Below are positions 15,446-57,069 of a stretch of DNA of 64,000 bases, in pieces; within the stretch, counting starts at the first letter, position 1; each line of letters opens with the position of its first letter. The translations under genes and the position numbers were made by a program. Where the stretch lies: assembly GCA_965235115.1 (NCBI GenBank), contig OZ249436.1, forward strand, positions 23,376,001 through 23,440,000, read 5' to 3'. Under the pieces are notes generated by a model, which saw only the letters and a list, made by a program, of their open reading frames with translations, was not told the origin of the DNA and did no database searches. Origin of the DNA: Laetmonice hystrix (lineage: Eukaryota).

Positions 15446-15594
15446 TCCGAATGATTGTTTCGGTTATATAACGGAAGGTTCAAATGGGCTAATGATAACA
15501 AAACATCGCATTGTTGCCGCATATCAGAAATGTGCTCCGGCATTTGTTATAGAAATGGAAGCCAGAAAGAGAAAAAGAAAAGAAAAAGGAAGAA

Positions 15595-18015: not shown

Positions 18016-19579
18016 GTTGTTGTTATCGGCATCATGAACAATTGACACAATATCAAAAAGCCATTGCTCGCGGTCGTAGTCAGAGTGGCGCCGGGCCTCA
18101 GGGGCCAAGCTCCCGTCAACATCACACGCATGCACGAATCCAAGTGGGACGAATGCAGGCGGCCGAAACCCACGGCTGCCCAGATCCGTGTCCACCCTGA
18201 TATGTCCCCTGACATCGGTAGGCTTTTCCTAGCCATTCCTCATCACTATCGATGGTTTTCGTCTATGTTCTAACAAATTTTGCTTATAAGTTGTCAACGT
18301 CCGCTGCCTTCCAAATCGATCAACGCAACAGGTGCGTCAGCTTTTAGTTCCTCCCAAACTGGAGAGCAGTCCCAAGGAGCAGACGGTGAATGGCGGCCTT
18401 CACCAGCTGAGCAGGTTGTAAGAAGCCTCCGGCACTAAAGTGCCTATATCTTAACCATCTGAGCACCAATTGTGTTCAAATATTTTTTAACTTGCTTAGA
18501 ATATCACGGCATGTGTGCCTGGCCTGTACAGACTGGCGATGGTCTTTTCTTTTAAGTATTTTCGAGAAACTGGGCCCTAGTCACATATTTAGTGGAACTA
18601 TGGGGTAAATAAACACAACTGCCAACAAATAACTTGTAACCAATCGATAATAACGGTTCAATCTTAAATTACCACCGTAAATTCTCTTTTCCTCTGATTG
18701 AAGGACGTACAATATTTTTCCATCGGAATCGAAACCTGAAAGCCTAAGTACGTTTAATAGGGTTATTCCCATTGGCCTATTGTTGAAAGGGAAAACGCAT
18801 TGCACCGGCTAAAATGGTCTTTCTGTATCCTCTCATTTGATTCGATCCAGCAACCAGCGGCCCTCACCTGCTCATAACGTCCTCAGCTGGTGACCGTAAC
18901 GCAAAATAGGGTGAATACTTAGACTTAGACTTATCATTTCAAACTTGTTTGATTTTTTGTTTGATGTTGCATAAACCTTACCCATTCCGCCACCTGACGA
19001 CTAATTAGGGAACTGCCTTAAGAAGCTGTTGTCACAGTGAGGTGTTGCTCTCAGGTACTTTTACGACCACTAATGGGGATTGTGTAACGACTGCCAATAT
19101 TGGTCACATTGCAGATAGCGACTTCTAACATTGCAAGCGCTAACACTTGTGACAACATGGGGTATCTGATATGGAACGGCACGGTCAGTAGGGCCGTTAG
19201 TAGTCGCAAAAAATTAAGGATCGCAAAGGTTTTAGTGGTCCTTAAGGCAAAAAAATATGCAACGAGGCCCAGGCGCTTTATCTTGGGAGACGATGACTTT
19301 TTCTTCTCTTCGTGTTCTTTGTGTCCTTTACTGGGAGCATCCGGGACATGGGGTTTCTTGTGGAGGGCAAAACATAAGACATCTATGCCTACAATGTAGG
19401 CCTACATGATTTTATCCTTTATTTACCGGATAACAAGCACTAAGTCTTAGTACTAGCCCTAGCTAGGTATCTACTATAGGTCTATACGGTGTAGTGTTTT
19501 CCATTCAGCAGAAATACTTGGTCGCCCAACTACTTATGTTTTTTTACCATACTAGCCCATTATAAACAAGCTTGTGAAG

Positions 19580-21870: not shown

Positions 21871-23020
21871 AACCAGCATACATGTCAAAGGGGTATTCCC
21901 GGAATTCCCCTCCTGACGTCACTATTCAGTTCATTCAACTGGTTCCCGGTGGTCTTACCCAGGGTCGACGAGGAACGATTTTCAAATATGTAATGATTTT
22001 GATTTTCTTCAACGATGCACTTTATGAAACGGAACCGACGATATATCGTAACGATTATCGTTCCTGATTGTTCTTGGCGAAGAACGATGAATTTGTCACG
22101 ACCATATGAAAAATCGCTCAAGTGTTTCATAAAATCGTTCTTAGCTTTTTTTCAATCGTTATTTCCTCGAAAAAAGTTGTTGGCCACGACCACCCCGAGG
22201 GTTGTCGTAGAATAATATAAAGGCGCGAAATGAGTGAATTTTGGCGGAATTTTACTACAACCGTGAACTATGGAGGGGAGAAGGAGGCGTCGGTGGTTCT
22301 TCGCACGAATAAACCCAATTAATAGGTTTTACGGCGACTTATTCGGGAGACGGTATCGGCAGGACAAGGTGTCAGTGATTGCACTTTCAAGAACATATGA
22401 AAACTCGCCGTTTTGCTCAACGTCCGGAGACCCAAGAGGCGGGGGGGGGGATAACTGCCCAAGAACGAGTAAGTATCATGCATATAGTCAAAGCTTGAAT
22501 TTGTGTAAAGAACCTAACATTTATTCAAAATTTTCAAAATGTATTACTTAGAAATAAGTATGGTATACTTCTTAAATAGGTTAATTCCTCTTAAAGTAAT
22601 TAAGATGCATATATCAGCAGAATTTGTAGGCCTAAAACTAACTCACTAAAAATAGGTTAATTACCCCTTCCTCATTTTGCAGATGTGTTTGGCCCTGTGC
22701 CACTACGCGACAGGGCCCAACTATAGCGTTCTGGGCGACCTCCAAGGCGTTAGCAAGCCCAACGGATAACAAGCACTAAGTCTTAGTACTAGCCCTATAG
22801 CTAGGTATCTACTATAGGTCTATACGGTGTAGTGTTTTCCATTAGGCAGAAATACTTGGTCGCCCAACAACTTCTATAAATGTTTTTAAGGCCTACCATA
22901 ATTATACCAGCCCATTATAAAAAAAATCGTAACCACGTTTTGGACTGAGAAAACGAAACATTTAGGCCTACGCTATGACATACAAAGGTAAGCCTATATT
23001 AAAAATTACATTCTGGGGTA
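21279..23020. repeat. ~1.7-kb direct repeat, copy A (copy B at 34763-36402; partial copies at ~19425-19565 and ~23230-23480)
   Basis: Colinear from GTCAAAAATAT..TTTGACCTGCCTCTACC to AAAAATTACATTCTGGGGTA. Confidence 0.9.
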
Positions 23021-34762: not shown

Positions 34763-36402
34763 GTCAAAAATATCTTTGACCTGCCTCTACCTTGGACTGT
34801 ACCTGATCATTATGTAATGTTTCATGCAAGATTATGTTGTTATCGTCAACTGTTTTAAAGATCCAGGCTATTGAAAATCTGCATGACCTTGATTGACCTT
34901 TCAAGGTCGCTCAAGGTCATGGAAAATGGCGCCAAATGAAACTTCATATATGACTTCCTATCTATCAATAATAGTAACTATTGCGTCATCTTGCACCGTT
35001 TTCGAGATATAAGCCAAAACAGTGTCATTGTGGGGGGTCAAGAAACAAATATGGCCGCCATGTCGCCATTTTGAATCTGAATTGAAATTGTATTGCTATG
35101 CATATTGGCCATCATTATGCCTCCTCCCTGGACCAGGTTTGAAAGAAATCGTGACTGTTTTGGCTGAGATATTGATGAAAATGTGTTTACATCCAAGATG
35201 GCCGCCAAACGGCCATTTTGAATGATATCAAAAATCTGTTCGACGTGCGTCATAGTCAGATCATCCCTGATCATTGTGTGAAGTTTCAAAGAAATCGACC
35301 CATACACCTCTGAGAAATCGCTGTCTACGGACATACGAACGTGCGTACATACGGCAGAACAAGCATGTGTCAAGGGGGTATTCCCGGAATTCCCCTCCTG
35401 ACGTCACTATTCAGTTCATTCAACTGGTTCCCGGTTGTCTTACCCAGGGTCGACGAGGAACGAGTTTCAAATATGTAACGATTTTGATTTTCTTCAACGA
35501 TGCACTTTATGAAACGGAACCGACGATATATCGTAACGATTATCGTTCCTGCTACGATTTTTTAAGAATTATCGTTCTTTTTTGGTCGTGGTTTATGAAA
35601 CAGAGCCCAGGGGTTGTCGTAGGATAATATAAAGGCGCGAAATGAGTGAATTTTGGCGGAATTTTACTACAACCGTCAATTATGGAGGAGAGAAGGAGGC
35701 GTCGGTGGTTCTTCCCACGAATGAACCCAATTAATAGGTTTGACGGCGACTTATTCTGGAAACGGTATCGGCAAGGAGTCAGTGATCGCCCTTTCAAGAA
35801 CGAAAACATATGCCGTTTTGCTCAACGTCCAGAGACCCAAGAGGCGGGGGGGGGGGGGATAACTGCCCAAGAACGAGTAAGTATCATCCATATAGTCAAA
35901 GCTTGAATTTGTGTAAAGAACCTAACATTTATTCAAAATTTTCAAATTACATGTATTTAGAAATAAGTAGGACTGTGGTATACTTCTTAAATAGGGCAAT
36001 TCCTCTTTTAAGAGGAATTGCCCTATTTAAGAAAACTAACTCACTAAAAATAGGTTAATTACCCCTTCCTCATTTTGCAGATGTGTTTGGCCCTGTGCTA
36101 CTACGCGACAGGGCCCAACAACAGCGTTCTGGGCGACCTCCAAGGCGTTAGCAAGTCCACCGGATAATAAGCACTAAGTTTTAGTACTAGCCCTAGCTAT
36201 AGTATCTACTATAGGTCTATACGGTGTAGTGTTTTCCATTAAGCAGAGATACTTACTCGCCCAACTATTTTTTTAGGCCTACCATATCATACCAGTCCAT
36301 AATAAAAAAAATCGCAACCACGTTTTGGATTGAGAAAACGAAACATTTAGGCGTACGCTATGAAACAAATTAAGCCTATATGAAAAATTACATTCTGGGG
36401 TA
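34763..36402. repeat. ~1.7-kb direct repeat, copy B
   Basis: Colinear with 21279-23020. Confidence 0.9.
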
Positions 36403-36429
36403 TTCATTAAACGTTATACTATTACAGCT

Positions 36430-38335
36430 CAGGGTCGTATAAACTCGCCTGACTGTAGTGATCAGGCCCCTATATACCCCTCATGAGTGTTGTGGTTAGG
36501 CCCTATATACCCCACATGACTGTATTTTTCTTTTGAAATGCACGGGCATCACGGGTAACCCAATTACTTTGACAATGTCCCTAAAGAGAAAAGTTGTATA
36601 GTCCTCTTCAGGAATCGAACCCCGGCCCCAAGATTACTTCACCCATTCGCATAGCATAAAGTGTCGACACCCATGCCCACTCGGCCACCGCAACTCCCCT
36701 AAAAAGGAGCTTTGGTGGTCGAGCAGGACAATGGACCTTCCCCCCTACACACATCTTCCGAAATGAGACGGAATCCATATTTTCCTAGATAGAGCTACAC
36801 ATGATTTCTACCGAACATTGACTGTTAAGGTAATCCTGGCACTGGCGTAGACTGTATTTTTCTTTTGAAATGCACGGGCATCACGGGTAACCCAATTACT
36901 TTGACAATGTCCCTAAAGAGAAAAGTTGTATAGTCCTCTACAGGAATCGAACCCCGGCCCCAAGATTACTGCACCCATTCGCATAGCATAAGGTGTCGAC
37001 ACCCATGCCCACTCGGCCACCGCCACTCCCCTAAAAAAGGAGCTTTGGTGGTCGAGCAGGACAATGGAATCAGGCGTAACCCAATTACTTTGACAATGTC
37101 CCTAAAGAGAAAGGTTGTATAGTCCTCTACAGGAATCGAACCCCGGCCCCAAGATTACTGCACCCATTCGCATAGCATAAGGTATCGACGCCGTGATTAG
37201 GTCCCTATATACCTCACGTGACTGTATTTTTCTTTTGAAATGCACGGGCATCAGGGGTAACCCAATTACTTTGACAATGTCCCTAAAGAGAAAAGTTGTA
37301 TAGTCCTCTACAGGAATCGAACCCAGGCCCTAAGATTACTGCACCCATTCGCATAGCATAAGGTGTCGACTGTAGTGATTAGGCCCCTATATATCCATCC
37401 TGACTGTAGTGGTTAGGAATCTATATAACTCGCCTGACTGTATTTTTCTTTTGAAATGCACGGGCATCAGGGGTAACCCAATTACTTTGACAATGTCCCT
37501 AAAGAGAAAAGTTGTATAGTCCTCTACAGGAATCGAACCCAGGCCCTAAGATTACTGCACCCATTCGCATAGCATAAGGTGTCGACATCCATGCCCACTA
37601 GGCAGTGATCAGGCCCCTATATACCCCTCATGAGTGTTGTGGTTAGGCCCTATATACGCCACCTGCCTGTATTTTTCTTTTTGAAATGCACGGGCATCAG
37701 GGGTAACCCAATTACTTTGACAATGTCCCTAAAGAGAAAAGTTGTATAGTCCTCTACAGGAATCGAACCCAGGCCCTAAGATTACTGCACCCATTCGCAT
37801 GTGATTAGGTCCCTATATACCCCGCCTGACTGTATTTTTCTTTTGAAATGCACGGGCATCAGGGGTAACCCAATTACTTTGACAATGTCCCTAAAGAGAA
37901 AAGTTGTATAGTCCTCTACAGGAATCGAACCCCGGCCCTAAGATTACTGCACCCATTCGCATAGCATAAGGTGTCGACATCCATGCCCACTAGGCCACCG
38001 CCACTCCCGTGATTAGGAACTTATATACCCCACCTGACTGTAGTGATTATGAACCTATATACGCCACCTTCCTGTGGTGATTAGGGCCCTGTATACCCCA
38101 GCTGACTGTAGTGATTAGGTCCCTCTATATAGCCTGACTGTAGTGGTTAGAAACCTATATAACCCACCTGCCCTGTATTTTTCTTTTGAAAATGCACGGG
38201 CATCAGGGGTAACCCAATTACTTTGACAATGTCCCTAAAGAGAAAAGTTGTATAGTCCTCTACAGGAATCGAACCCAGGCCCTAAGATTACTGCACCCAT
38301 TCGCATAGCATAAGGTGTCTGGAGTGATTAGGTGC
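36430..38335 (-). mobile_element. 34-bp minisatellite carrying eight copies of a tRNA-like (SINE-like) element
   Basis: Minisatellite unit ~GTGATTAGGCCCCTATATACCCCACCTGACTGTA. Eight GGAATCGAACC (minus-strand B box GGTTCGATTCC); A box TGGCCGAGTGG in the longer copies. Confidence 0.75.
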
Positions 38336-38727
38336 AACCTCTTCACTCTAGGCCTAATATCAAGCCACTCAGGCAGTGACTGACCATGGACTGACGTTAT
38401 ATAGGCCTATTTAAATAGGCCTATCCCATGGGGGTCCAGTGCCCTCTTTCGGAAAACAGATCACCACATCCTCAGCTGACCAATATGATTGCCCATCTCT
38501 AATACTTCAAAAAAAAAAGTTCTGGCTACGGGCCTGAATCCGTTGTATTTATGGGTCTAAAGCTGGCCACACATGCAGATAAGGGCATGTGAAAAGAAAG
38601 CTGTAACATGATCGTGTATGTGCGACTGTTTGCTCAAACAGGGCCTTGTAACACCTTCAGACCTCGACCCCGCTAGCCAATGTGCTGTTGTCTCAACCTG
38701 ATTGACAGGTCACACCTTGGCAACAAT

Positions 38728-39180
38728 AGGTGACCAAGCCCTGAATCCAGGTCCCATATAATGGATAGACTCCCACCTATAAGGTGAACAGGGCTGGGGT
38801 GTTGGTCGATATCTAGGTGACCAAGCCCTGAATCCAGGTCCCATATAATGGATAGACTCCCACCTAGTATAAGGTGAACAGGGCTGGGGTGTTGGTCGAT
38901 ATAGGTGACCAAGCCCTGAATCCAGGTCCCATAATAGATAGACTCCCACCTATAAGGTGAACAGGGCTGGGGTGTTGGTCGATATAGGTGACCAAGCCCT
39001 GAATCCTGGTCCCATGGCATATAATGGATAGAGTCCCAACTATAAGGTGAACAGGGCTCGGGTATTGGTCGATATAGCTGACCAAGCCCCGAATCCAGGT
39101 CCCATATAGGCCTACCCCCACCTACAAGGTGACCAGGCCTCGGGTATTGGTCGATTTAGCTGACCAAGTCCTGAATCCTG
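38728..39180. repeat. ~75-80-bp tandem repeat, ~6 copies
   Basis: Repeated TGACCAAGCCCTGAATCCAGGTCCCAT...AAGGTGAACAGGGCT. Confidence 0.92.
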
Positions 39181-41372
39181 GCAGCTAGAGGAGTCGCGGC
39201 GCTGACAGTGACAGTCTGCTGCGTGCTGGCCTCGTGTGCTGCATACTTTATAGCCCGTTATATACTACTGTTTCTGACCCTTTTCTTCTCTCTGTCAATT
39301 AGAAGCCAATAGATTTGTATTTTAGGAGAATATATCTGTCTCGATTTTGGACAGTAATCTGTATTTAACTCCTCAAGAATAGTGTTTTCGACCGCCTCTA
39401 TCGAGGACTCAGTCGCGACATAAGACGGAACGGAACGTCTGCTAGCTAGAATTCGGATTTTCCCGCAACCCTCTAGTGAATCCCCGACCTGGATTCCAGC
39501 GATGAGATTTAGCCTCTTCCGATGACCCTCTTCCGATGACCCTGGCTGTTGCAAGGCGTAAAACCCCAAATACCCACCCACCCATCCTGGCATCTGGGAA
39601 CAAAATCTAGGCCCTCTGACGGTCTGACCATCTCCTGCCACCTTGGAGCTGGGGGGGGGGGCAAAACTATGCTTGTCGGAGCCCCCCAGCTTTTGAGCTG
39701 GGGGGGGGGGCAACAGGCGCCCCCTGCCCCCCCGTTCCGGCGCCTATGACAGAGGTGAAAATCTCCAGTTCCTAGATATAACGTCTCTAACACAGTCTTA
39801 GGAATATGACTGTACAGCTTTGAACCATGCAGTACTTTTATAATAGACTATGAAACAAATTGGAAGTTAATTCTAATTGTCTTCACAGATTTGTGGCCTT
39901 TCAAATGTCTTGTAGTGCAAGGGAATGTCTACATAAAACAATTGTTATAACAAAGTTATACATACTAGTATTCAATTGCATGTCATATTGTTCAGATTGA
40001 TATGTTTCACTCAGTATTGGAGCGAGGAAAATTTTTGGTCTTCTTTTAATTTTTTTAGCGGTTTCGGGCAGATTTTTTTTATATAAATCTGCTGCCTGTC
40101 AACAATCTATTTTTTTCACACACATTGCTAAACAAACTATTTTTTTCACACACATTTGGGAGGAAACTATTTTTTTGGGTCAACTTGGCAAACAAACTTT
40201 TTTTTACAAACCCCGCCCCCCAACTATTAAAGGGAAATGTGTGTGTTCGACGGAATTTGATTGACCACTAGAATTTTCAAAATATTTTTATGGGGGATAG
40301 CCTTTGTCCTTAGGAGTACAGAGAAACAAAAAAAATCAAATGTCACCGAATTAGATTTTTTTATACAGGCCTCCGTAAAAAATGGGTCTTTACTATAGGT
40401 TTCAATGAAAAAAACAGGATTTTTCAGACATTTTGACTAATAGTTAAAAAATTTTACCACCAATTTCCTCCTGAAACTCGGTGACAAGATAAAGTGGATC
40501 AGGACTAATAGTTTAAAACAAAAAAAAATTGGGGGTCGCCGAATCAAAAAAAAAGTTACAGCCTGCCAAACAGTCAGTGCCTTGGTAAAACACGGGTCTT
40601 AACCATAGCATTCAATGGAGTAAACAGGTTCTGGCACACAGTTTGGTTCATGGTTTAAAAAATACTGCTGATTTCCACATCAAAGTAGTTGACTGCATAA
40701 ATAAGCCAAACATTTTTCTGTTAAAGCTCAGTACGCGGCACTTTGAATACTCACATTTCCCCAGTGGTACCAACGCGACTCACTAGGTGGCGCTTTGAAC
40801 ACTCACATTTCCTTTTAAATGGTCTGCCCTAAGGATGAAGTGGCCTTCACGGCTGTGTAGTTGATACATGTATATTTGTCCTATGTGATTTTGTAGTAGG
40901 TATTGGCTTGTGAGTCCAAATAAAACAACAACAACAACAACAACAACAACTGGCCGTAATTAAGGGTTGACCACTTTACTGAGGTGGCCGTTAAACGGGG
41001 TGCCACTGTATATTGTCCTAGTGCTAAAAATACGTGTATAAAATGTTCTTAATTATCATAAAGATTAGGTGGGGGGGGGGAGATACAGAACAATGTGTTT
41101 TGTCCTTTTGGACTGAGGACATGTGCTTTCGTCATTATCGCGGAGCGCTATCAAGCGAGGCTAGGTCTATAAGGGCGCATATAAGTCTCGGTTAGTGGTC
41201 TTGGGGCATGCCACGGATTTTTTTGTAATTAAAGGATGTATTTGCTATTTTCTGGGGGCTGAGCAACGTTGTTTTTTCTACCTTGCATGGGTAGGCCTAT
41301 TTCTCTAAATAGGTTTTCAGACTTTTATCCTGACAAGGTGGGCCTTGGCTGGCTCCGTGGGTAGGTTACGAG

Positions 41373-41610: not shown

Positions 41611-42044
41611 TCGCACCCCCCTCGCCGACGGGCCTGCCTTGTTCCCAGCGAACAAAGCAATGTTCAAGCAACATTGCAGCAACATGATCATTTTGTTGTA
41701 GCAATGTTGGCATGTACCATGGCAGCAACATTCGCAAGTTATGTTTTCATAATATTGTGATATTATACTGGAACAATATTTAAACAATATCATCCTAATA
41801 TTATATTAAAATACCCAGCAGGCAAAACTCGTGCATTTCCCGTAGAATACACGTGGATATTATTTATATGTGCATGTGTATTACAAGTGTGATTTTCCAT
41901 GTCCTATCAACCAGTTTTCCATTTCTCCCGGTTTCCACATCACACACAACGTGGATCTGATATGCGGCTATTTTTAGCCATGACATGACCGCCATGGTTG
42001 AGTGGTCACTGACTCCGAGACCCGTATGCCTTTTTCGCGAAGAG

Positions 42045-42142
42045 GCCGGGCACTGATGGGATTCGAACCGTTTGCACTGATGGGATTCGAACCGTTTGAT
42101 CTCCTGATGACAGGTACGCGTCTCTGCCCATTCGGCCACGCT
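42045..42142 (-). other. tRNA-derived (SINE-like) segment with a duplicated B box
   Basis: Minus strand TGGCCGAATGG...GGTTCGAATCCC, with the B-box segment tandemly duplicated. No convincing cloverleaf. Confidence 0.5.
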
Positions 42143-42377
42143 TGTAGCTTGTATCTTGCACGGTTGGAATCCTGTTTTTTCCTCGTGTTGCTATCAATAA
42201 ACCCCGCGCGTTACCGAGGGGGTTTATTGATAGCACCCCTCGGTTGATCATTTTTCTCTCTCAATAAAATCCTCTACTTGGTCTCGTATTTTTTCTCCAT
42301 TTCTCAATTCAGAACATTTACCATAAATCCCTTCGCTAACGCTCGGGGCTTTCAGTGATAGCACCCGTAAGGTAATG

Positions 42378-44849: not shown

Positions 44850-45481
44850 GTCAGCATGATTGCCTGCAATCATTGATCCCATTTCCCTAAAATACATACA
44901 GACATCCTGTAAGCCTATAGGCTACATGAGGAAGATCGATATGGAGAGTGCATTTTGTTGTAGAACCATTATGTCAAATTTGACCAGGATAATTCGAAGA
45001 GATCTACTTCAAAATCGTACATTTATGTATTACTGAATCATCTCTTTTCTAGTATCTGAGAGACATTTGCCCTGTTGGTACTTGTTTAGTCACTGAAGAA
45101 CATTTTCATAAATTTAGGCCAAAATCCCACCTGCTATAAAAGCACAACTAATTTCCTAAAGATCTCTTGAAAACTCAATTGTTTTACTAACGATATAAAA
45201 TTGGAGTTTGACGTTTACAATACGAAAAATATCTGATAAAAATACCTTTCCTTAATGGGATTCGAAGCCATGATATCCAGCCTATGTGACGGCTATTTTA
45301 CCGAATCAGCTATAGAGACTCATAACTGAAGCGGTACTAAGGTCCTATCTATAATAGATGAATGACGTCACGACACGTAACAGTAATGTCACAGGAGAAA
45401 ATTGTCACAAATTTGGCTTATCCCACCCTCTTTAAGCAGGGCAAGTTTCATAAAGATTCTGTTCAAAACTGCAAGGGATAT
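44850..45481. repeat. Older host repeat into which both the LTR element and the Academ-like element inserted; continues at 58223-58452 and 63214-64000
   Basis: Shared motifs AAATTTGGCTTATC..CCACCCTCTTTAAGC and AAAACTGCAAG.GATATGACT. Paralogous empty sites near 63820 and 45275. Confidence 0.75.
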
Positions 45482-46634
45482 TATCGTCTGGCTGACGATT
45501 GAGTTGGGGAACTAACTCGTGAAGGGGAGGCTGAGAGGTATATTACGACACAAGCGGGGATAAGTTGTTAACGATTGTTTAATTAACAGTAGAATAAATG
45601 ATACACACCAATATGTAAACCGTCAACGTGCTAGTATACGTGTAAGAACCGTTTGCTTACCGGGTTGCCGAATAAGTCCTTGGCTTAGGTGTGGTCAACA
45701 CCATGTCTATAATCTGAGTGTCCAGTAAGGCTAAGGCGAGCCAGTACGAATGTATATATAAATGTGTGAAGGGTCCAAGATAGCTGGTTGTTCTCTGGTG
45801 CTTGTTGTTGCTCGTCTCTTGTTCTCTGGTGCCTGTCTTGTTGCCTTCTCTTGCTTTCTGTTGCTTTTCTGCTTGATCCAGAGTGGATGCAACTTATATA
45901 GGTTTAATTACGTCAGAATAGTTAATTTAGCGAAACGGATTGTCATTGGACCAGGAAGGTCACGAGGGGAAGCAACATGGCCGCGAACCTAAGGGAGTTT
46001 TAATTCCCCAAAGCCAGCGACGCCCTCATTAATTATTTATAGAAACTAAAGTTGAAGTATAATACTGTTTTCGTTGTATAAAAAGTTATATGTGCTATAT
46101 ACGAATAAATGAGTGAAAAATATGGAATCCTGAGAAGGCTACAAATCTTATGGTGTGCTTTACATACCGTAACTCATATTAATAAGCATATATACATATT
46201 GTTCACAACAATCGTCTTTAAACCTAGTACATGGACGTTACACCGTAAAAATATATATATCCTTTCCTGCAGAAACATGTAGGTCCTATAGATTCACAAT
46301 AATTAACTTGTTGACGGATAATTCAGAACTTATTAAACTTGTATATATAATTGCTGATGACAACTACAGGTGTTTGTTTCAACTAGCGTAACGGTATAGA
46401 AGAGTGACGGTATTGTACATATAAGAGGGTCAGACGTATATATAGATTAACAGCTAAGGTTATATGATAGTTTTGAGATATATATCGTAAGAGAACATCG
46501 ACGTTACATATATAATTAGGCTCACAGGAGCTTACAATCCAAAATGGCGTAGCCCACGTAAACCGGACCATCTGGTATACGTTCCGCCTTAAGGGCCTAC
46601 ACAAAGGGATGGCGCTATAAATATCGTGCCGATA
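45482..46634 (-). repeat. 3' LTR (1153 bp)
   Basis: Direct repeat of 57070-58222. TATCG...CGATA termini. Only two substitutions noticed by eye. Confidence 0.96.
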
Positions 46635-46648
46635 TCACCCCTGTTGTT
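46635..46648 (-). promoter_or_regulatory. Candidate polypurine tract
   Basis: Minus strand AACAACAGGGGTGA abuts the 3' LTR; short and imperfect. Confidence 0.45.
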
Positions 46649-47073
46649 GCAAAAGTTCGTCTCGAACTTAAAATCAAAGACGCCTAATTCATACTATGTT
46701 GATACAATTCGATACAAGTAATCGTCGCTACTACTAAAATACATAAGTGACATGAACGTAACTGGTTATTATTGCTTATATGCCGTGGCTATGGGTCCAT
46801 AGTTCGTAGCTGGCTTAAATTCAACATTGACATTTTGCAAAAATAACGCAGAAAATTAAAAATGTGTCCAATTTAGCAAATGGTCTAAAGACGTGAACAA
46901 ATACTATGATATCATGTGGTCGCGCAGGACCATTGCAAAACAAGTAATACAGTAATACAAGAAACATATAAAACGCTCAGTAAGAAATCCCAAATTAGGG
47001 GTCAATAGGTCCAACTTGTCATGTGCTTAAAATTGTACGTGGCATGTCGATTTGTGTGGCAATATAGGAAGCT

Positions 47074-49211
47074 CTAAGGCAAACCTGGGTACAAGTTACT
47101 AGAGGCGTCTTCGTCATTCATACACCCAGACACATAGAAGGATCTGTTTCCATGGTCTACTAGTAAATAGGCAGTGTATGCTGAAGCAAACAGTTTACGT
47201 ACACGATAGGCATTAATTGGATTTAATGGAATGACGTCTGGCATTGTCAGTGGTTCGCCAGATAGGCTGTTCTTAATGTGTATATCATTCCACGTGATCA
47301 TTAACTTTGGGCGTAATTTTCCCTGAAGACCCAAATGCTTGATCGCGCCATCGGCCTTAAATGAGTAATTCTTAGGATACATAGGTAAGGGCCTAATGGG
47401 TAGAATAATGCTTTGACTTGCACTCGTGAGTTCAAGACTAATTCGAAGGACTTGTTTGCGATAGCAGTGACGAATAAGGAGAAAGCCGATCAGAACGACT
47501 ATAAGGGAAAGCATGACTGCTTGGAGTGGTAGTGCTGGGGTGTGGCATGGGGGGTTGGTGGGGGTCGGGGTAGTGGTTAGTTGGGGTAGGAACGTCCAAA
47601 CCTGATTAGAGAGGGTAGCCTCGACAGGTTTAACAGTCAGAGCTGTTACCATAGAAAATAGAAGTTTAACGCGATATGCCATGTAACATGAGAGTAAAAG
47701 ACTCAGACAAGCTATGGCTGCGGAGATATATGCCACATACATCGAGGAAGATGAGGATATATTTGGGAGATCCTCCAAAAGAGGTTCTGAGAGAGACTCA
47801 AATGCTTTCTCGTTTCTCTGAGCGGCCTCCACCGCCTTTCGAAGGTTGAGGTCTGCGTTCGTCTCTGTAACCAGGGTTGACTTGTATTTATGTTTAAAGA
47901 GTGTAATGGGGGGTAAATTTCCATCAAATGGCAGTTGATGAAGGTCAGATGGTCTAAAACCTGACAACATGTGAAGTTCATAGCTGTGTAGCATCATAGC
48001 CATGTTAAAACCATGGGACAGTGAACTGTCTGTGCCATTATGACAGAAATCGAGACGTGGTGGAATATAGAAACCTTGTGCTGAAAAGGAGCACAGGCAT
48101 GGAAGTCGCATAACACAAAAGTGACAACCATGCTGTACCCTAGAGTATGATGTACACGTGAGCTGGAATCTGGTTATATTAGTTAGAAGTAAGGTTCCAT
48201 GGCCTAAATGTGCTACCGTCGGTTTAATGATGTTAGCCTTTAGCCTAAAATTACAAAGTTGTTTAATTTCGAATTTGTTATCAGTAAAGATAGCTGAAGC
48301 ACAGGATGGATTAGTAATTGCCACTAGTGGTTCATCCAAGTGCTCATTAAAGAGATAATAGGGGTGAGAAATAGACTGACCATTGAGACTGTGGAATTCA
48401 GCATAGTACATGCCATCCCTGCTAAGGGCAAAATAATTTGGAAGTCCGGACAGAAGCGAGGCATGTAGAGAAGTATAGTTAATTGGGACGGGGAAAGTAC
48501 TAATTTGGAAAAGGTCCAGTAAAACATGCGAAGTGATGAGTGGAAAGTGTACATTAACATATATAGAATTGTTATGATAAAGCCATGTAAATCTGAAGTA
48601 TTGATAGAATTGAGGCAAAGTGATGTCAGGGAGTCTGAACTGTGGATGGTGTTTGGCTAATGCACTAGCAATAACATTGCTGGCCTTGTGAAAACTAGCT
48701 GGTGGAATAAACATTTCTGAAATTGTGCCTTGTACCAGTGTTTGTACTGCAGTCCTTAGTTCTGCTGCAAAGAGCTTCAAATTAGCAGCCAGTTTAAGTT
48801 CTGTGGCGACTGTGCTTGTGAAATTTATGACTTCCTTGATTGTTTTGTGTATAGCTTGGGCATTTCGGATGACATCCATGATGGTGTCATGTTCGACTTC
48901 TATGGCCCGTTTAACATCATGAAATTTAGCATTAGAGTGTGTCATAAAGGACGATAACTCTTGATGGAAGGTCTGCATCATCGATTTAGCTCTAGTTTGC
49001 TGGCGAGCCATTTTGCGTGCATGTTTGACAAGGATTTGAAGATCGTGATCCGTGGCAAATCCAAATAAGGATTTTCCAACGTCGGCCACTAAAGGCAGAA
49101 TGCCGGCGGATCTGGGACTCCGACCATTGTAGTGTGGCGGATCCAAGTGGTGAGGTAGTAGATTCGGGATGGTATCCAGAACGGCATTGAACTGATCTGC
49201 CGCATCCTTCC
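47074..49211 (-). CDS. env: Envelope glycoprotein, 3' part (baculovirus-F/errantivirus-like fusion protein)
   Basis: RSPR cleavage motif followed by fusion-peptide-like SAGILPLVADVGKSLFGFAT, a heptad-like region, Cys-rich ectodomain, N-glycosylation sequons and two hydrophobic segments. The first ~18 aa of the 730-aa track ORF come from the MITE. Confidence 0.9.
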
Positions 49212-49214
49212 TAA

Positions 49215-50530
49215 AGCCCCAGTCCCACCAAAGCCGATTGTACGACGTTCTATGCCGTTCTATCAAGATCTGAAATTTAGTTTAAGTCGTGATGAATCGT
49301 GATAAAATCACGACAACCCGAAGAGCTAGCTACGAATCTATCATGTTCTATCCCGACATCGGCCCGACCTTCCCGACAGCGCAACGACTACAGCAACGTT
49401 CATTGCCGACCTATGCAGATTGAGCTTCGACCTATCAAGATCCCGGGCCGATGTATGGCGACCTATACCAAGATTGACAAACGATGTAGCAACGTCCTAT
49501 GCCGTGCCCCAGCCGAGCTACGACCTGTCCCGATGACACCAGGTCTAGATCAGGGCTAAAACCACAGTCCCACCAAAGCCGAATTAGCTACGACGTGTCA
49601 CGATCTGATAAATCGTGTAGAATCGGGAAAGGTCCTAACTCGGTCGTACAGTAGTCTTGATAGATCCTCATAGGTCGGGATAGGCCACGATTGCACCCCG
49701 ACAATTTTAAACTGTTCAAAACAATCGGCATTGGTCGGGAAAAAGCTCAAATCGGGGATATACCGTAGGTCAAACGTTGCTCAGTCGGGAATAGTCGGGG
49801 GACAATCGGGATAGTTCGTTGTTCAGTCCTGGTTGATCGTAGGACAATCGCCAGACATTTCCTAGATCTAGCCCTGAAGTCATCGGGACAGGTCGTATCT
49901 CGGCTGGGGCTCAGACGGCATAGAACGTTGCTACATCGTTGGTCAAACATCGGGTCGGGTTCTTGATAGAACGTAGCTCAATCTGCATAGGTCGGCAGAG
50001 AACGTTGCTAAGTTGTTTCTCGGTCGGGAAGGTCGGGGGATGTCGAGATAGAACATGATAGCACGCGGCGTGATCGTTGAGAGATCTTTGGAAAACCGTT
50101 GCCCAGTCGCCGTTGAACGTGACAATTCGTAGCTAGGTCTTCAGGTTGTCATTATTTCATCACGATTCATCACGACTTAAAATAAATTTTAGATCTTGAT
50201 AGAACGGCGTGGAACGTAGTACAATCGGCTTTGCTGGGACTGGGGATTAATTTTCTGGCAATTGTCCTACGATAAACCAGGACTGAACAACGAACTATCC
50301 CGATTGTTCCCCGACTATATTCCCGACTGAGCAACGTTTGACCTACGATATAGCCCCGATCTGAGCTTTTTCCCGACCAATGCCGATTGTTTTGAACAGT
50401 TCAAAATTGTCGCGACCTATGACGATCTATCAAGACTACTCTACGACCGAGTTAGGACCTTTCCCGATTCTACACGATTTATCAGATCGTGACACGTCGT
50501 AGCTAATTCGGCTTTGGTGGGACTGGGGCT
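49215..50530. mobile_element. PIF/Harbinger (Tourist-like) MITE inserted in env, TAA TSD
   Basis: Perfect 23-bp TIR AGCCCCAGTCCCACCAAAGCCGA. TAA at 49212-49214 and 50531-50533. Confidence 0.92.
49560..50247. mobile_element. Second copy of the same MITE family nested in inverse orientation, TAA TSD
   Basis: Degenerate TIRs AACCACAGTCCCACCAAAGCCGA / TCGGCTTTGCTGGGACTGGGGAT. TAA at 49557-49559 and 50248-50250. Confidence 0.88.
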
Positions 50531-50854
50531 TAATGGAATGTAGCAACCAATCTGCTGGCTTGTAGCCGTAACATTTAGACGTAGTGGACGTGTTGAAGCA
50601 GATTTGGCTTGGTATACTGACATGAAATGTCGAAGGCAGAAGAACTTGGAATGTGTGCTTCCATGTTGAGTGAATTGCGAGTCTTGATCCCAAAGATTTG
50701 TAAATGGTTCCATAGTTCAACAAGTATTTAGTTGAAGTTGTACCTCCAAGGCAAACGCTCACACAGCAGAAGAGGACCAACAGCCTCAGAAGCCCAACGC
50801 TGCGAGCTGGGTGAATGTCAGGCGACCGTGCCGACCCAATTGTAGTCGGCTCAT
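50531..50854 (-). CDS. env: Envelope glycoprotein, 5' part (signal peptide and N-terminal subunit)
   Basis: LLRLLVLFCCVSVCLG signal-like segment, then LNYGTIYK...WKHTFQVLLP. Joins the 3' part in frame (WLLHSI-R-KDAADQ) when the MITE is removed. No in-frame ATG upstream; preceded by a pyrimidine tract and CAG. Confidence 0.85.
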
Positions 50855-51155
50855 CTGTCAGACAACAAAGCAGAGACACGGGAAGAAAATGAGAAGGTGG
50901 CGATTGGTGAGGGAACCAGCCCTGTATGTGAATAATGGTAATGAAGTGATATAGAAGTGCATTATGACGTGTGTCTCAGCCATGCTTAACTTGAGATGGG
51001 TCACCCTAATACTACAACTCATTGGCAACAAGGGGAGTGGCTGAACCGCAATATTGAAATGTACTGCTTTGGGTTATAAGTACTCCTCTGCCGTGCAGGA
51101 ATGTCTCTTGATAGGAAGGTACTACTTTATGCCCGGCACTTTAGAACAACAAGGG

Positions 51156-54100
51156 TTAGACTGACTTGAATAATGTCTTGGGTTTCTTCTTTTTTTGTCG
51201 ACCAGAGTTGTTGTACCTTTCATGAAACTTAATTATCATTTCAGTTGGGATATCAGCGGGCCATAACCATGCTGGAGGTTTATTCTCCAACCTTACTTTA
51301 TATATTTTCTTGCCTTCCTTATATGAAGCTCGCAGAATTTTGATTGGCTTTGGTTTGGCATCCGTGTTTTGAGGAGCGCTTGCATCTTGTGATGGCTCAT
51401 TGACATGTTTAGACTGATCCGTGTCCTGAGCTGGTGACTGAGTTATAGAGTCAGCCGCTGTCTCGGCCTCTGGAGGAGTGTAATCCTCACAAGGTTCTGA
51501 AGACGACAGGTCAGATTTGACAAAGGGTTTCAATCTATTTGCATGCTGTCTTGTCGAAATTCTGGTGTGTGATCCAACGTCACGCAAGGAGTATGTGTTG
51601 TTGTCATGTATTTGGTCTATATAATATGGGCCTCGCCATGGTTTATGCAGCTTTTTGGAGAGCCCTATGGGAACTTTCTCACTTCTAAGCAGCACTGCTT
51701 GGTTTATTTTGAACGTGGGTGGGGCTGTTCCTTTATCATAGTGTTGCTTGTATTTGTGCTGATGTTCCAGTATGTTACTCTTTGCCATGTCATGGATCAT
51801 GCGAATTTTACCCAAAGTATTCGCCAAATACTCCTGAGTTGAGGGAGGAAGGCGATCCTTAGGTTGCAGTGTTCTATCAATTGGGAGACTCATGTCTTCA
51901 CCAAAGAGTAAATAGAATGGTGAGTAACCCGTCGATCTTGATGCTGGTGTGGCTCTGTAACTCATTAATATACCAGGGAGATATATAGGCCAGTCTGTTT
52001 GGTTATCATTAACAAATGAACGGAGCGCTTGACCAATGACACTGTTGAAGCGCTCACACGTCGCATTTGTCTGCGGGTGGTATGGTGATGTATGTACTCG
52101 GTTGACTTTGAAGAGTTGACAGAGTGATGCCACTAATGATGACAGGAACTGTTTACCTCTATCAGATACCAGAGTTTTAGGTGCCCCATATCGCGTAAAA
52201 ATCTCCTCATAGAGAACTTTTGCGACTGATGCTGCATTTGCATTTTCCAAAGGAAACGCTTCAGGCCACTTGGAAAAGCTGTCAACCAGCAATAGGATGT
52301 ATTTCTTTTTATCAGCGCTCTCATGTAATGGTCCCAGGAAATCGATGTGCCAGCGCTCAAACCTTCCCACGATTGGCATGGGTTGCAATGGGGCAGGCCT
52401 ACAATGGCGGTTAGCTTTAGCCGATTGACACGATGGACATCCTTCAACTAAATCCTTGACATGAGAATACATACCAGGCCAGAAGTATTTCTGTTTGATA
52501 GAGTCGTAGGTACGGTCAAATCCCTGATGTGCGCCGCCAAGGAGGTTATGATGGTAATGTTCCATGATGGTATGGCGCATGTCTCCGGAGGTTATTTTGT
52601 CTTCCTCTGGAATCACTAGACGTAGTTGTGTAATCTCGTTTCCAGCAGGGTCTTTGCCTAAATACAACTTGTGATGCAGTAAGCCATCCTTTAGTACATA
52701 CCTAGACAGTGAGCGCTGAGTGTAGCCTGATGGCTTATCTGTCTTAGACTTAGTGACTAGATAGTTAAATATCTTCCCCATCTTGCCCAACTTTTGGAGC
52801 TCTTTTATATCAAGGTCTGCAGAAATTTCTAGGACAGACTCCTCTTGACCTGTGACGTCTGCAGTGATATCTATGGCTGCCAAAGTGGGTAGAGGGTTAG
52901 TTTGTGATGGAGACCGTGAGGTGTCTACTGTTGCCATGAGTGGCACTTCTGGCTCAGGTTGGACAGCATTCTCAGTAGTTGTCTCTGTTTGACACGCTAC
53001 TGAACGGGGCACGTCTTGTGGTAAGTCACGTGTGGGATCATCTGTTCTAGACAGAACGTCTGCATTGATATTTTCTGCACCTTTTCTGTATGTAATATGA
53101 TAATCCCAGCCTGCGAGTTCAAGTGCCCACCTGCTTAACCGTCCAGTGCCGCCTTCTTTGGCTTTAATATAGGCCAGAGCTTTGTGGTCTGTGACCACCT
53201 CAAACGTGGATCCTATAAGGTATGATCTGTATTCCCTGATGCCGTCGATCACAGCCAAACCTTCACGCTCAGTGATAGAGTAAGCTTTCTCTTCACGCCT
53301 GAGAGATCGACCTCCATATGCTAAAACACGCTCATCGCCATGTATGTCTCGCTGTGAGAGAATATAGCCTATGCCCGTGCCACTTGCGTCACATGTCAGG
53401 GTGTACTTTTTTGTAGGATCTGGGAACTGAAGCATAACAGGCCCTGTTAGTCTGTCTTTTAAAGCCTGGAAGGAACTCTCACATTCCTCCGTCCAGTTGA
53501 ATTTCATACCTTTAACAAGCAAGCCATTGAGGGGTGCACGAAGAGAGCCAAAGTCCTTAATGAACCGCCTGTAGTAGTTGCAAAGACCTAGAAATTTGCG
53601 GACTTGCCTGGGTGTTGATGGCCTGCAGAAGTCTTTAACGATTTGGACTTTGTCGGGGTTAGGCCGGATGCCATCTTTAGAAATAATATGGCCTAGGTAT
53701 TTAATGGAATCGAGGCCAAATTTGCACTTTTTGGGGTTTAAAGTGAGACCTGCATTTTCAATTCGGTTCAATACGCGGTCTAGTTCTCCGAGATGTGCGT
53801 CAAACCCTGTCGAGTGGACGCATACGTCATCGACATACGAGAAGGCACAGTCACGTAGAGTGTCACCAAGGGTTTCGGTCATTAATTTCTGAAATGCAGC
53901 CGGGGCATTGGACAAACCGAAGGGCATTTTGTTACATTCATACTGATGGTCTTGTAGGACAAAACCAGTTTTGTGTTTTGTTGCTGGGTCTAGTTTTACT
54001 TGCCAGAATCCCGAATTTAGGTCCAGCTGGCTGAATAGACAGCTTTCCTTTTGTCCGATGGCGTCCCAGACGTCCTCGACTCTGGCAAGGGGGTAGGAAA

Positions 54101-55631
54101 TTTTCTTTGTAATTTGATTAAGTTTCCGGAAATCTATCGCGAATCTATATGTATTGTCTTTTTTTCTGACCATAACCACAGGAGAGCGCCACATTGAAGT
54201 TGAAGGCTCTATTATGTTATACTTCAGAAGTGTGTCAATTTGTTTTTCAATTTCTTCCTTGATAATGGGGTTAACACGGTAGTAACGCTGTGAAGCTGGG
54301 GGTGCGTCTCCGGTGTCAATAACGTGAGGTGCCACTTTGGCTGTACCCAATTCACTAATATCTGCTGCAAACGCTTTACGATGGCTTTGCAGAAATTGTA
54401 AGAGTATTTCTTTCTCTTCAGGTGGCAAATTGGACTCAGACAGATCAAAAGTGATATCTGCTGCTTCAGACTGTTCTGACTGAATGGGGACATCTGTCAT
54501 GCCACGATAATCAAGCCCAGAAAGGTCGCCATCAAAGGCGTCATCACTGTTAAAGAGGACTTGGGCCTTTTGTAAAGTAGTGGCCAGACCTATGGTGTGA
54601 GATTTCTTTATTGTGATTGTAGTATCAGAATGGTTGACCAAGGTACACTTAGTATATTTGCCTTTTGGGCAGTCAATACTGGGTGGGACGACCAGATCTG
54701 GGAACTGATCCTCCAAACTATGTACTGGTTCCATGAAAAGTAAACCATGATGGGGTTTTGTGAGAACCAATTGTACAGTGCACTCTGAAGTAGGTGGAAT
54801 GGAAACCTTCTGTGCGGTTCTGGCTAGAGTGCGTCGTTTGGTTGGCCCACGCAAGGGGACAGATGGGCCATCCTTAAAGGTTAGCATACCACTTGCGAAA
54901 TTTACATCTATATTGTTGTCTTTTAAAAAATCAAGACCCAGGATGAGTGAGTGGTGACCTTCTAGCACATGAAAATTTTGCATCAATGTGTGTCCTTCAA
55001 TGTTGAGTGTCAGTATGACCCTACCAAAAACATTGTGGGTTTCACCACCAACTCCTACAACAGCATCAAACCGTGGTTCGAGCGTTTGCGTTTGAACGGG
55101 CAAATTTTGTAAGAAGTTGTGTGAAATACAAGACACTTTGGCACCAGAATCTACCAACGCAAGTGTAGACTTGTTTCCAATGTGCACGCTAATCATATTG
55201 GTATAATCATCATCAAGGGAAACTGTGACATGCATAATGGAGTGTTCCTGGGAGGTTGTTTGTGAGGGAGGGGGAGATATGGGTGATTGAACTATATGGG
55301 ATTCAGCCTGGCTTGCCGGTGGCGAAGGTGTATGGTCGACTTGACGTGTTGTTTTGTCACTGCAAACAATGCCTTGGCTGGCGCCAGCCATATGTGTCTG
55401 GTGAGGTAGAGTATAGCTGTCAGCATCCTTGTGATTGTTGCTGGGTGGGGAGGCTGTTTGGGGTGGAGGTGTTAATTGAGGGGGGGTGGACCTGAATACT
55501 TTTGAGGTACAGGTATGTGTGGGCTGTGTTGTGGGAGGGTAGGTGCTAGGTGGTTGGGACAAAACCTGGGGGAATGCCACTTGTTGGTTTTGTACTGAAT
55601 TACATGTACAAGATGTCTTTGCCAGCATCAT
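51156..55631 (-). CDS. pol: Pol polyprotein: protease, RT, RNase H, integrase, degenerate chromo-like tail (1491 aa, uninterrupted)
   Basis: LVDSGA (protease); MPFGL and YVDD (RT); LTCDAS..GIG (RNase H); HHCC zinc motif, DFLGP, SDRG and ERFN (integrase); GPY motif. Confidence 0.97.
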   Translation of the reverse strand: MMLAKTSCTCNSVQNQQVAFPQVLSQPPSTYPPTTQPTHTCTSKVFRSTPPQLTPPPQTASPPSNNHKDADSYTLPHQTHMAGASQGIVCSDKTTRQVDHTPSPPASQAESHIVQSPISPPPSQTTSQEHSIMHVTVSLDDDYTNMISVHIGNKSTLALVDSGAKVSCISHNFLQNLPVQTQTLEPRFDAVVGVGGETHNVFGRVILTLNIEGHTLMQNFHVLEGHHSLILGLDFLKDNNIDVNFASGMLTFKDGPSVPLRGPTKRRTLARTAQKVSIPPTSECTVQLVLTKPHHGLLFMEPVHSLEDQFPDLVVPPSIDCPKGKYTKCTLVNHSDTTITIKKSHTIGLATTLQKAQVLFNSDDAFDGDLSGLDYRGMTDVPIQSEQSEAADITFDLSESNLPPEEKEILLQFLQSHRKAFAADISELGTAKVAPHVIDTGDAPPASQRYYRVNPIIKEEIEKQIDTLLKYNIIEPSTSMWRSPVVMVRKKDNTYRFAIDFRKLNQITKKISYPLARVEDVWDAIGQKESCLFSQLDLNSGFWQVKLDPATKHKTGFVLQDHQYECNKMPFGLSNAPAAFQKLMTETLGDTLRDCAFSYVDDVCVHSTGFDAHLGELDRVLNRIENAGLTLNPKKCKFGLDSIKYLGHIISKDGIRPNPDKVQIVKDFCRPSTPRQVRKFLGLCNYYRRFIKDFGSLRAPLNGLLVKGMKFNWTEECESSFQALKDRLTGPVMLQFPDPTKKYTLTCDASGTGIGYILSQRDIHGDERVLAYGGRSLRREEKAYSITEREGLAVIDGIREYRSYLIGSTFEVVTDHKALAYIKAKEGGTGRLSRWALELAGWDYHITYRKGAENINADVLSRTDDPTRDLPQDVPRSVACQTETTTENAVQPEPEVPLMATVDTSRSPSQTNPLPTLAAIDITADVTGQEESVLEISADLDIKELQKLGKMGKIFNYLVTKSKTDKPSGYTQRSLSRYVLKDGLLHHKLYLGKDPAGNEITQLRLVIPEEDKITSGDMRHTIMEHYHHNLLGGAHQGFDRTYDSIKQKYFWPGMYSHVKDLVEGCPSCQSAKANRHCRPAPLQPMPIVGRFERWHIDFLGPLHESADKKKYILLLVDSFSKWPEAFPLENANAASVAKVLYEEIFTRYGAPKTLVSDRGKQFLSSLVASLCQLFKVNRVHTSPYHPQTNATCERFNSVIGQALRSFVNDNQTDWPIYLPGILMSYRATPASRSTGYSPFYLLFGEDMSLPIDRTLQPKDRLPPSTQEYLANTLGKIRMIHDMAKSNILEHQHKYKQHYDKGTAPPTFKINQAVLLRSEKVPIGLSKKLHKPWRGPYYIDQIHDNNTYSLRDVGSHTRISTRQHANRLKPFVKSDLSSSEPCEDYTPPEAETAADSITQSPAQDTDQSKHVNEPSQDASAPQNTDAKPKPIKILRASYKEGKKIYKVRLENKPPAWLWPADIPTEMIIKFHERYNNSGRQKKKKPKTLFKSV

Positions 55632-55685
55632 GTTGCGTATTGGTGACCTGTTCAGATGGACCCGTTTCTGAACTGGTGAGCAACA

Positions 55686-57011
55686 TCAGTGGTCGTAGTG
55701 GGGGAGGGAGGTATGTTGGTGGGGGGCTGGGAGGGTGGGGTTAGGGTGTGTACAGGTGGCGCACTGCATTAGGGGCTCTGCATAGTTAACATATCCCACT
55801 CTCTTATTATTCCCAAATCCATTGCCGGACCTATACTGCCGATTATTGTGTTGTGGCGCCACAGGTGGCAAACCACGGCGCTTACGCCCGCAAACATTCT
55901 CTAAGTGATCTTTTATACCACAGTACCGACATATTTTGCCACTAGCACGACAGTTGGACCTACCTTGACAAGTACTGCTGCCACAGTAGTTACAGGTCCG
56001 TTGTGAGCCGAACGGCGGTGCTGACCGTCCGTTTCTGCCAGTTGATGGAGAGCGGTGGCGTTCTGGCCCAGAGTCTGTGGTGGCACTAAGGCGACCCCGG
56101 TTGACCTCTGTGTTGAGGGTGGTTGTCAGCCTGTCCATCGCATCGGACAGTTGTAGGATGGCCTTGTGTCCCGCATCCAACTTGACGTCCACCGCCGACA
56201 CTGCTGCCGTTGTCGTCTGCCCTGCTGCGTTGGCTCCTCCAAACAAGATGCTTTGCATCGTTTGTAGTGTTGATGGTGCTGGATGGAGTCGTCCGTCCAT
56301 GGCTGACACGCTGGTTTGCGCGCCGGGAGTCGGTAGCATAGGTGTTGGGGCGGTGCTGAATGTTGCTGCAGCCTCATAGAGTTCCAGCAGCGACTTTGGC
56401 GCATGCAGCATCACGAGATTTCGCACCTCAGGCCGTAACCCGCTGCATATGGGTCTGACCAGCTGAGCTTCTGACACCTCCGGACAGTACCCTGCTGCCA
56501 ATTGCATCTTGTCTATATATGTTGTTAATGCCTCACCAGGCAGCTGGTGGCGACAGGCCAACGCCCGTTCACCAAGGAGAGCGTCCTCCGCCGATGGACA
56601 GAACCGTTTTCCAAATTCCGTCTTTAACGCATCCCACTTGGCACCATCTGACGCATACTCAGTATCCTTTCTAATAAAGTCTCGGTACCAAGACTTTGCC
56701 ACACTTGAGAGGGAGAGTGGGAGGAGGTTTATTTTCTCCTCTGCTGTGCACTTATAGTGCTTGGCGTACTGCTCAAAGTCCTCTATAAACGATTTTCCCT
56801 CCTTATTTTGAAACCCATCAAACTCCGCCCGGAATGGTGGGCAGGCGTTGTGTGCCATGCAGGTGGGTGAGGCTGCACGCTGATTTTGAGGCGCGTTGTT
56901 TGAGCCGTTCCCCACTTGTCCTTGTAAGACTGGTTTTCTGGACCTAGTAGCGTGAGCTGGACACGCCGTATCGGGTCTATTGCTATTAATTGGTGTGGTG
57001 AATATTGGCAT
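55686..57011 (-). CDS. gag: Gag protein (441 aa from the first ATG)
   Basis: Retrotransposon capsid-like region (FEQYAK...AKSWY...WDALKTEF...Q.PGE) and tandem zinc knuckles CNYCGSSTC...C / CRYCGIKDHLENVC. The track's GTG start at 57068 lies at the PBS and is unlikely. Confidence 0.92.
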   Translation of the reverse strand: MPIFTTPINSNRPDTACPAHATRSRKPVLQGQVGNGSNNAPQNQRAASPTCMAHNACPPFRAEFDGFQNKEGKSFIEDFEQYAKHYKCTAEEKINLLPLSLSSVAKSWYRDFIRKDTEYASDGAKWDALKTEFGKRFCPSAEDALLGERALACRHQLPGEALTTYIDKMQLAAGYCPEVSEAQLVRPICSGLRPEVRNLVMLHAPKSLLELYEAAATFSTAPTPMLPTPGAQTSVSAMDGRLHPAPSTLQTMQSILFGGANAAGQTTTAAVSAVDVKLDAGHKAILQLSDAMDRLTTTLNTEVNRGRLSATTDSGPERHRSPSTGRNGRSAPPFGSQRTCNYCGSSTCQGRSNCRASGKICRYCGIKDHLENVCGRKRRGLPPVAPQHNNRQYRSGNGFGNNKRVGYVNYAEPLMQCATCTHPNPTLPAPHQHTSLPHYDH

Positions 57012-57049
57012 GAAATTTAGATTGAAGGGGGGGAATTCCGAAACCGCGA

Positions 57050-57067
57050 CTCGGGTTCTTTCCACCA
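57050..57067 (-). promoter_or_regulatory. Candidate primer-binding site
   Basis: TGGTGGAAAGAACCCGAG starts 2 nt after the 5' LTR. TGG matches tRNA CCA; TGGTGGA resembles a tRNA-Ala end over only 7 nt. Confidence 0.55.
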
Positions 57068-57069
57068 CT

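Follow-up and report, generated by a model that had tools for sequence, protein, structure and literature searches.

The described system closest to the repeats considered here is SINEU-3 of crocodilians, and with it target-preferring SINEs are already known (PMC4494074). In the available parts of that account, SINEU-3, a non-autonomous SINE, prefers a site within a different repeat: of 347 copies close to full length, 313 flank Mariner-N4. Its copies include 5'-truncated ones and tandems around the target duplication, and it was probably moved by Tx1-Mar LINEs, Tx1 targets including satellites and microsatellites (PMC4494074). The element described below shares the preferred site within another repeat, the truncations and the tandems. 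The heads of SINEU-3, however, come from U1/U2 snRNA, its target is a DNA transposon, its target duplication is ~16 nt long and its partner is known (PMC4494074), whereas the present element has A and B boxes, a 34-bp minisatellite as target and a duplication of 0-7 nt. Because head and target are different and the duplication is shorter, it is not a member of SINEU-3, although it works like one.

A second group for comparison consists of site-specific elements residing in tandem repeats: Kibi/Koshi, satellite-targeting Tx1 (PMC4494074), Utopia/YURE (PMC4640811) and the R1 tandems (PMC5932611). As far as the accessible text of these papers goes, the likenesses lie in precise 3' and varied 5' junctions, as generally reported for site-specific non-LTR elements (PMC4640811), in little or no target duplication in some families, in weaker copies at short target-like motifs, and in tandems formed by repeated insertion, which is a source of non-LTR tandems (PMC5932611). 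These elements are autonomous and encode reverse transcriptase and endonuclease, whereas the present one is 325 nt long and non-coding. In the latter respect it is like the tRNA-derived SINE2 class, whose members are described, in the sections available, as short, non-coding and numerous, with A and B boxes and an A-rich tail (PMC5786205); it differs in that its boxes lie ~160 nt inside, behind a run of five T, and in having no tRNA match. Among tandem SINEs and satellites derived from SINEs, the newt PolIII/TAN repeat, in what is accessible of its description, likewise forms head-to-tail whole units of ~360 nt with a tRNA-like part (PMC10702118), but the present family is also found dispersed and embedded in a minisatellite. 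Three features of a SINE are present in it, and the head at the 5' end is not.

SINEs with a preferred site are uncommon, and a literature search covering the main text of mostly open-access papers listed no minisatellite-preferring SINE. A young, abundant family with many junctions could reveal the cut geometry and motif of a LINE enzyme from sequence alone, and repeated insertion makes the minisatellite a mixed array and seeds tandem SINE arrays.

The locus is a degenerate 34-bp minisatellite (36424..38330, no strand assigned) of ~14 units, with a mean pairwise divergence of 24%, broken up by eight copies of the element. By blastn these eight, all within the array, are the only copies in the window (the whole 64-kb stretch of DNA analysed); a ninth was sought across it and none was found. 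The left flank of the array (35611-36402) is itself repeated, being 87% like 22199-23020, which has no minisatellite after it; on the right the array is adjoined by a separate 90-bp tandem repeat of ~5 copies (38726-39181).

All eight copies, c1 to c8, lie on the minus strand. The first, c1 (36525..36849), is a full-length element of ~322-325 nt with several private letters. Its ragged end runs into GACTGTA (36850..36856, plus strand), apparently a duplicated target reused by c2 (36857..37068), which is 5'-truncated to 212 nt and fused to c3 (~37066..37192); c3, of ~124-127 nt, lacks 20 nt of the 3' end, is 5'-truncated with a blunt 5' junction, and carries a second family-wide set of letters. 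Likewise truncated at the 5' end are c4 (37227..37370, 144 nt) with a target duplication of 4-7 nt, c5 (37443..37603, 161 nt) ending 1 nt ahead of GTGAT, c6 (37672..37800, 129 nt) with a blunt 5' junction, and c8 (38178..38319, 142 nt) with an imperfect 4-nt duplication, in the last unit of the array. The 5' junction of c7 (37835..38008, 174 nt) is also blunt, and its 5' end lies ~12 nt ahead of the A box, the predicted position of a Pol III start.

The one fixed and one ragged end noted in the preliminary description are borne out. Seven of the eight copies begin directly after CTGTA with a T-run, the exception being c3, of which the first 20 nt are missing. At the ragged ends, six copies return to the minisatellite 0-4 nt before GTGAT: c3, c6 and c7 exactly at GTGATTAGG, c5 after 1 nt, c8 after TGGA, and c4 after TGTA, with three further letters common to element and repeat. 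Under a simple random-phase model, six ragged ends would fall within 8 nt by chance with a probability of (8/34)^6 = 1.7e-4; the pattern of the eight copies is real and beyond chance. The left flank is the target repeat for 6 of the 8 copies. Of 11 intact target sites 6 are filled, and of 3 altered ones 0, a difference that is not significant (p = 0.21).

Read on the minus strand, as had been proposed, the fixed end is an A-rich 3' tail (36525..36540) and internal promoter boxes are present: an A box of Pol III type 2 at 36687-36677 and a B box at 36621-36611 match the respective consensus sequences. The two are 55 nt apart, and the variant letter at 36682 occupies a site in the A box that the consensus leaves free. 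The label "tRNA-like", given earlier on these grounds, can refer to the two boxes only: ARAGORN reports no tRNA gene and Rfam no tRNA match at E up to 5-10, decayed heads being often missed; Rfam searches of four stretches gave sub-threshold noise only, and no open frame of 150 aa is present in the element. In the full-length element the boxes lie ~160 nt inside, ~150 nt preceding the box region, so that this form lacks an RNA-derived head at its 5' end; a shorter form starting at the box region exists in c7 and in a joint at 36699 in one set of public contigs.

The 5' part (36700..36849, minus strand), which ends in a T5 run (36705-36701, minus strand) located 5' of the A box, may weakly resemble the inverted 3' part. 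When the 5' part is compared with the whole 3' part inverted, 77 of 137 columns are aligned alike; shuffled sequences do as well in 78 of 1000 cases in a local test, in global tests in 6-23 of 1000 with two of the scorings and in 35-221 of 1000 with the third, and in 33 of 2000 when the central hairpin is left out. Neither inspection by eye nor Rfam revealed a promoter in the 5' part. An HDV-like ribozyme was considered on the basis of its motif and dropped; for a retrozyme or hammerhead satellite, the core motif occurs once, solely through a private letter of c1, and Rfam gave no ribozyme match in stretches of the element. A second element with A and B boxes lies at 41990-42170 (minus strand); 24 bp are tandemly duplicated at the B box, and Rfam gives no tRNA match; around the A box it has 14 of 15 letters in common with the present element (10 of 1000 shuffles).

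Did these copies arrive separately, or were they multiplied in place? If unit and element had been duplicated together, equal likeness would be expected for both. Among c4-c8 (10 pairs), the shared 114-nt body differs at 0-1 nt, while the left minisatellite units of the same pairs differ at 3-9 of 34-35 positions; with bodies near-identical and flanking units diverged, block duplication is not the explanation of these five copies. It had been suggested earlier that block duplication contributed, from a spacer block recurring at ~36457-36510 and ~37604-37657. The recurrence is genuine: the two instances of this two-unit block differ at 4 of 68 columns, one of these being an end offset. In this duplicated two-unit block, c1 follows one instance and c6 the other, and since c1 and c6 differ at 5 of 114 nt, mostly at family-wide letters, the spacer appears to have been duplicated first and then filled twice. 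Duplication of spacer is thus upheld, but it leaves c4-c8 unexplained.

Further evidence comes from public contigs. Those of four of nine runs (X1, X4, X6 and X7 among X1 to X9) were compared with positions 36405-36856; X1 and X4 represent one sample, from organism A, possibly the source of the window, X6 is from organism B, and X7 is a marine metagenome. Summed contig depth gives no copy number and no indication of expression or start site, and the joints and loose ends described below are among those listed, 12 of 45 rows for the joints and 13 of 295 for the loose ends. In X1, 3407 contigs match on the 452 bases, in identity bands of 727, 1173, 1096 and 411; this is a large family with old and young copies. 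It is short (~325 nt), non-coding and present in many copies, some of them, in X4 and X6, in unrelated flanks. Exact-pattern scans for the element in JGI metagenomes and GTDB gave 0 matches, as did a scan for the minisatellite in JGI metagenomes; a single exact-pattern match in IMG/VR is a 27-nt chance match within a phage-contig gene.

In all four runs contig cover extends from the fixed end to 36846-36849. Records 7 and 8 of X1 and record 18 of X6 stop at 36846, the last with an unrelated flank. Because family cover ends at 36846-36849, c1 is full length rather than the end of a LINE, and the ~150 bp upstream of the tRNA-like part, which the preliminary description had found unusual for a simple SINE, turn out to be a regular part of a ~322-325-nt family. 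At 36778, eight X1 contigs diverge from the element (median 191 letters, with low agreement); they may belong to a subfamily of greater age or to a relative that is longer. At 36691 a single X4 contig departs from the element into GT-rich sequence, which opens with GTG and so resembles the target's right half.

Among the joints listed, those at 36676, 36699, 36777, 36788 and 36845 lead back into the minisatellite at GTGATTAGG-like letters. The joint at 36699 (to 36502) is the end of c7, recurring in X1 contigs, and the other four cut points are absent from the window. Those at 36777 and 36845 are bridged by 49-50 letters, and the majority of the listed joints are blunt or almost blunt. Both the window copies and the five listed X1 joints represent independent insertion at a single nucleotide of a repeat. 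The marker letters of c4-c8 (36623, 36629, 36670 and 36682) are carried by 16-22 contigs of X1 and recur in X4, X6 and X7, and those of c3 (36554 and 36663) are carried by 56-66 X1 contigs; given that these letters are family-wide, the window copies represent three family-wide types. The earlier proposal of a non-autonomous retroelement that inserted independently, time and again, at a single site accordingly gains in strength from the junction geometry, the divergence of flanks relative to bodies, the cut points in contigs and the family-wide variants.

Head-to-tail tandems are also present in the family. A joint from 36849 to 36518 with seven shared letters (GACTGTA), the same joint as that between c1 and c2, is found in each of the four runs; the bridge is 34 letters long in X1, 48 in X6 and 143 in X7, but only 18 in X4. 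X6 and X7 each have a single 364-nt contig containing a complete c4-c8-type unit that closes on itself; this fits a tandem array, and a circle would also be possible.

Specificity for the target appears to be for a short motif. All three of the 3'-side flanks listed for X4 are unrelated DNA keeping TGACTGTA, CTGTA or TGTA; a single unrelated 5' flank is seen in X6. Since the unrelated 3' flanks keep (GAC)TGTA, the target would be this motif rather than the array itself; the preference for a site stands, but "homing to this minisatellite", as it was first described, is too strong for copies whose flanks retain the motif only. One published criterion for target specificity, in the available part of its source, is that more than 20% of flanks be the target repeat (PMC4494074). 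The depth of the junction bin relative to the next bin is 0.18 in X1 and 0.005 in X4, a rough floor at best with units differing by 24%.

The most probable reading, to which we would give a probability of about 0.78, is a SINE of Pol III type that a site-preferring LINE moves through target-primed reverse transcription (TPRT). It builds on the observed junction geometry, the independence of the copies from their flanks, the size and unit length of the family and its tandems, and would involve an RNA intermediate, Pol III transcription, a nicking enzyme and a partner. A SINE-like family of ~325 nt would be copied in trans by a LINE preferring (GA)CTGTA|GTG: after a nick following CTGTA, priming would take place on the A-rich tail, synthesis would often stop early, leaving a ragged 5' end, and the other strand would be cut no more than 7 nt from the same place, giving a blunt junction or a short duplication. 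The minisatellite would act as a sink, offering one site per 34-bp unit, and would have taken up copies of three or more family variants. Duplication of GACTGTA would renew the site, allowing a second copy head to tail, as with c2 beside c1. TPRT, in the accessible text of two papers, leaves a 3' end that is A-rich and fixed, 5' ends that are ragged, and the other junction close by (PMC3747384, PMC4640811).

Several points sit awkwardly with TPRT by a LINE. The reverse transcriptase fragments of the window yield no partner, the boxes come with no tRNA match, and the filling of intact and altered sites does not differ significantly. A T5 run upstream of the A box should stop Pol III arriving from upstream, and the making of full-length RNA is left unexplained. 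Look-alike copies also adjoin each other (c1 with c2; c4-c8), as local copying would also yield. Regarding the enzyme, blunt junctions would suit a restriction-like one and short duplications a Tx1-type one.

One alternative, itself rather unlikely, would have head-to-tail arrays serve as source genes for the young variant, with a permuted RNA from them picking its landing site itself. Pol III would start just ahead of an A box, cross the tail and the target motif, enter the 5' part of the next unit and stop at its T5 run. The product would be a 332-nt permuted RNA with paired ends and its own target sequence inside, which would pair with the nicked site and guide insertion. The array stretch from just ahead of the A box of one unit to the next T5 is predicted to resemble a complete Pol III unit with the target motif inside, c4-c8 never extend beyond the predicted start, c7 ending at it, and the c4-c8 variant is the one present as a self-closing unit in X6 and X7. 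Dispersed full-length copies, however, would go unexplained, and the support is indirect. In the predicted fold of c1 the 5' part pairs with the box region, but the folds are unremarkable (c1, z -1.96, 2 of 100 shuffles; the natural permuted unit across c2-c1, z -1.37, 10 of 100), and for the predicted pairs that two variant letters would break, compensating changes were sought among the contig variants listed and none was found. If true, such RNA guidance would be a new way of site choice for a SINE.

Could the array have filled without any RNA? A break at an empty CTGTA|GTG might be repaired from a filled neighbouring unit by one-sided invasion, with partial copying and joining of the ends, which would yield a fixed left junction, variable length and blunt rejoining. 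Copy similarity does follow array order, the near-identical copies c4-c8 being neighbours with only 0-1 of 114 nt different, and at 36552 the letter common to c1 and c2 is one seldom met in X1. Such repair would still require a break at one exact base, it gives no account of copies in unrelated flanks keeping the motif, and c7, the longest of c4-c8, is without the 36623 letter common to c4, c5, c6, c8 and a family-wide variant; repair from a neighbour is accordingly improbable as the source of these copies.

Somewhat less credible again is a mechanism with little enzyme preference, by which RNA running on into TACAGTC would pair with nicked GACTGTA ends and so select the site, the source copies being tandem or embedded in minisatellite. 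The GACTGTA head-to-tail joints in the four runs, bridged by 34-143 letters in X1, X6 and X7, would provide such sources, unrelated flanks retain 4-8 letters of exactly the GACTGTA-type motif, and one study, in its available text, proposes that the RNA anneals to the target in SART1Bm and R1Bm (PMC7265360). Against it, blunt 5' junctions at an exact base suggest a defined second-strand cut, and an endonuclease preference is a simpler account of the same flanks.

Multiplication of one insertion through unequal crossing-over, in blocks of unit and element that deletions later shortened, is very improbable, even with the recurring two-unit spacer block (4 of 68 columns differing) and a similarity that follows array order in its favour. 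Bodies are only 0-1% apart in copies whose flanking units differ by 9-26%, six deletions ending no more than 4 nt from one phase would be needed (1.7e-4, simple model), and the window copies hold three family-wide types. The derivation of all eight from one insertion by crossover and deletion, which the preliminary description had named among the outcomes that would refute it, is by the divergence, the phase and the three types largely refuted.

Scarcely credible is an origin of the copies as 3' ends of a LINE that is site-specific and has a tRNA-like piece in its 3' UTR: such LINEs are, in the accessible part of their description, often 5'-truncated with blunt junctions (PMC4640811), but X1 and X6 contigs stop at 36846 with unrelated or target flanks, the X6 and X7 unit closes on itself at 36849, and no long open frame is present here. 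Coding for reverse transcriptase and endonuclease, as in the site-specific LINEs Tx1 and R2/NeSL/Utopia, is absent from a family that ends at 36846-36849; this origin is mostly refuted, the eight X1 contigs at 36778 leaving room for a minority of longer copies.

As for the partner presumed by the TPRT reading, no such LINE was found in the window. Three broken LINE-type reverse transcriptase fragments with RVT_1 matches are present on the minus strand (8272-11127, 14444-15463 and 17345-18228), the first presumably L1/Tx1-like by its motifs; they share no tail with the element (118-223 of 300 shuffles score as well). The window also contains a Ty3/gypsy-type LTR element (45481-58222, minus strand) with gag-, pol- and env-like frames (Baculo_F, E 1e-6), the 1154-bp LTRs of which are 99.8% identical and therefore indicate that it is young.
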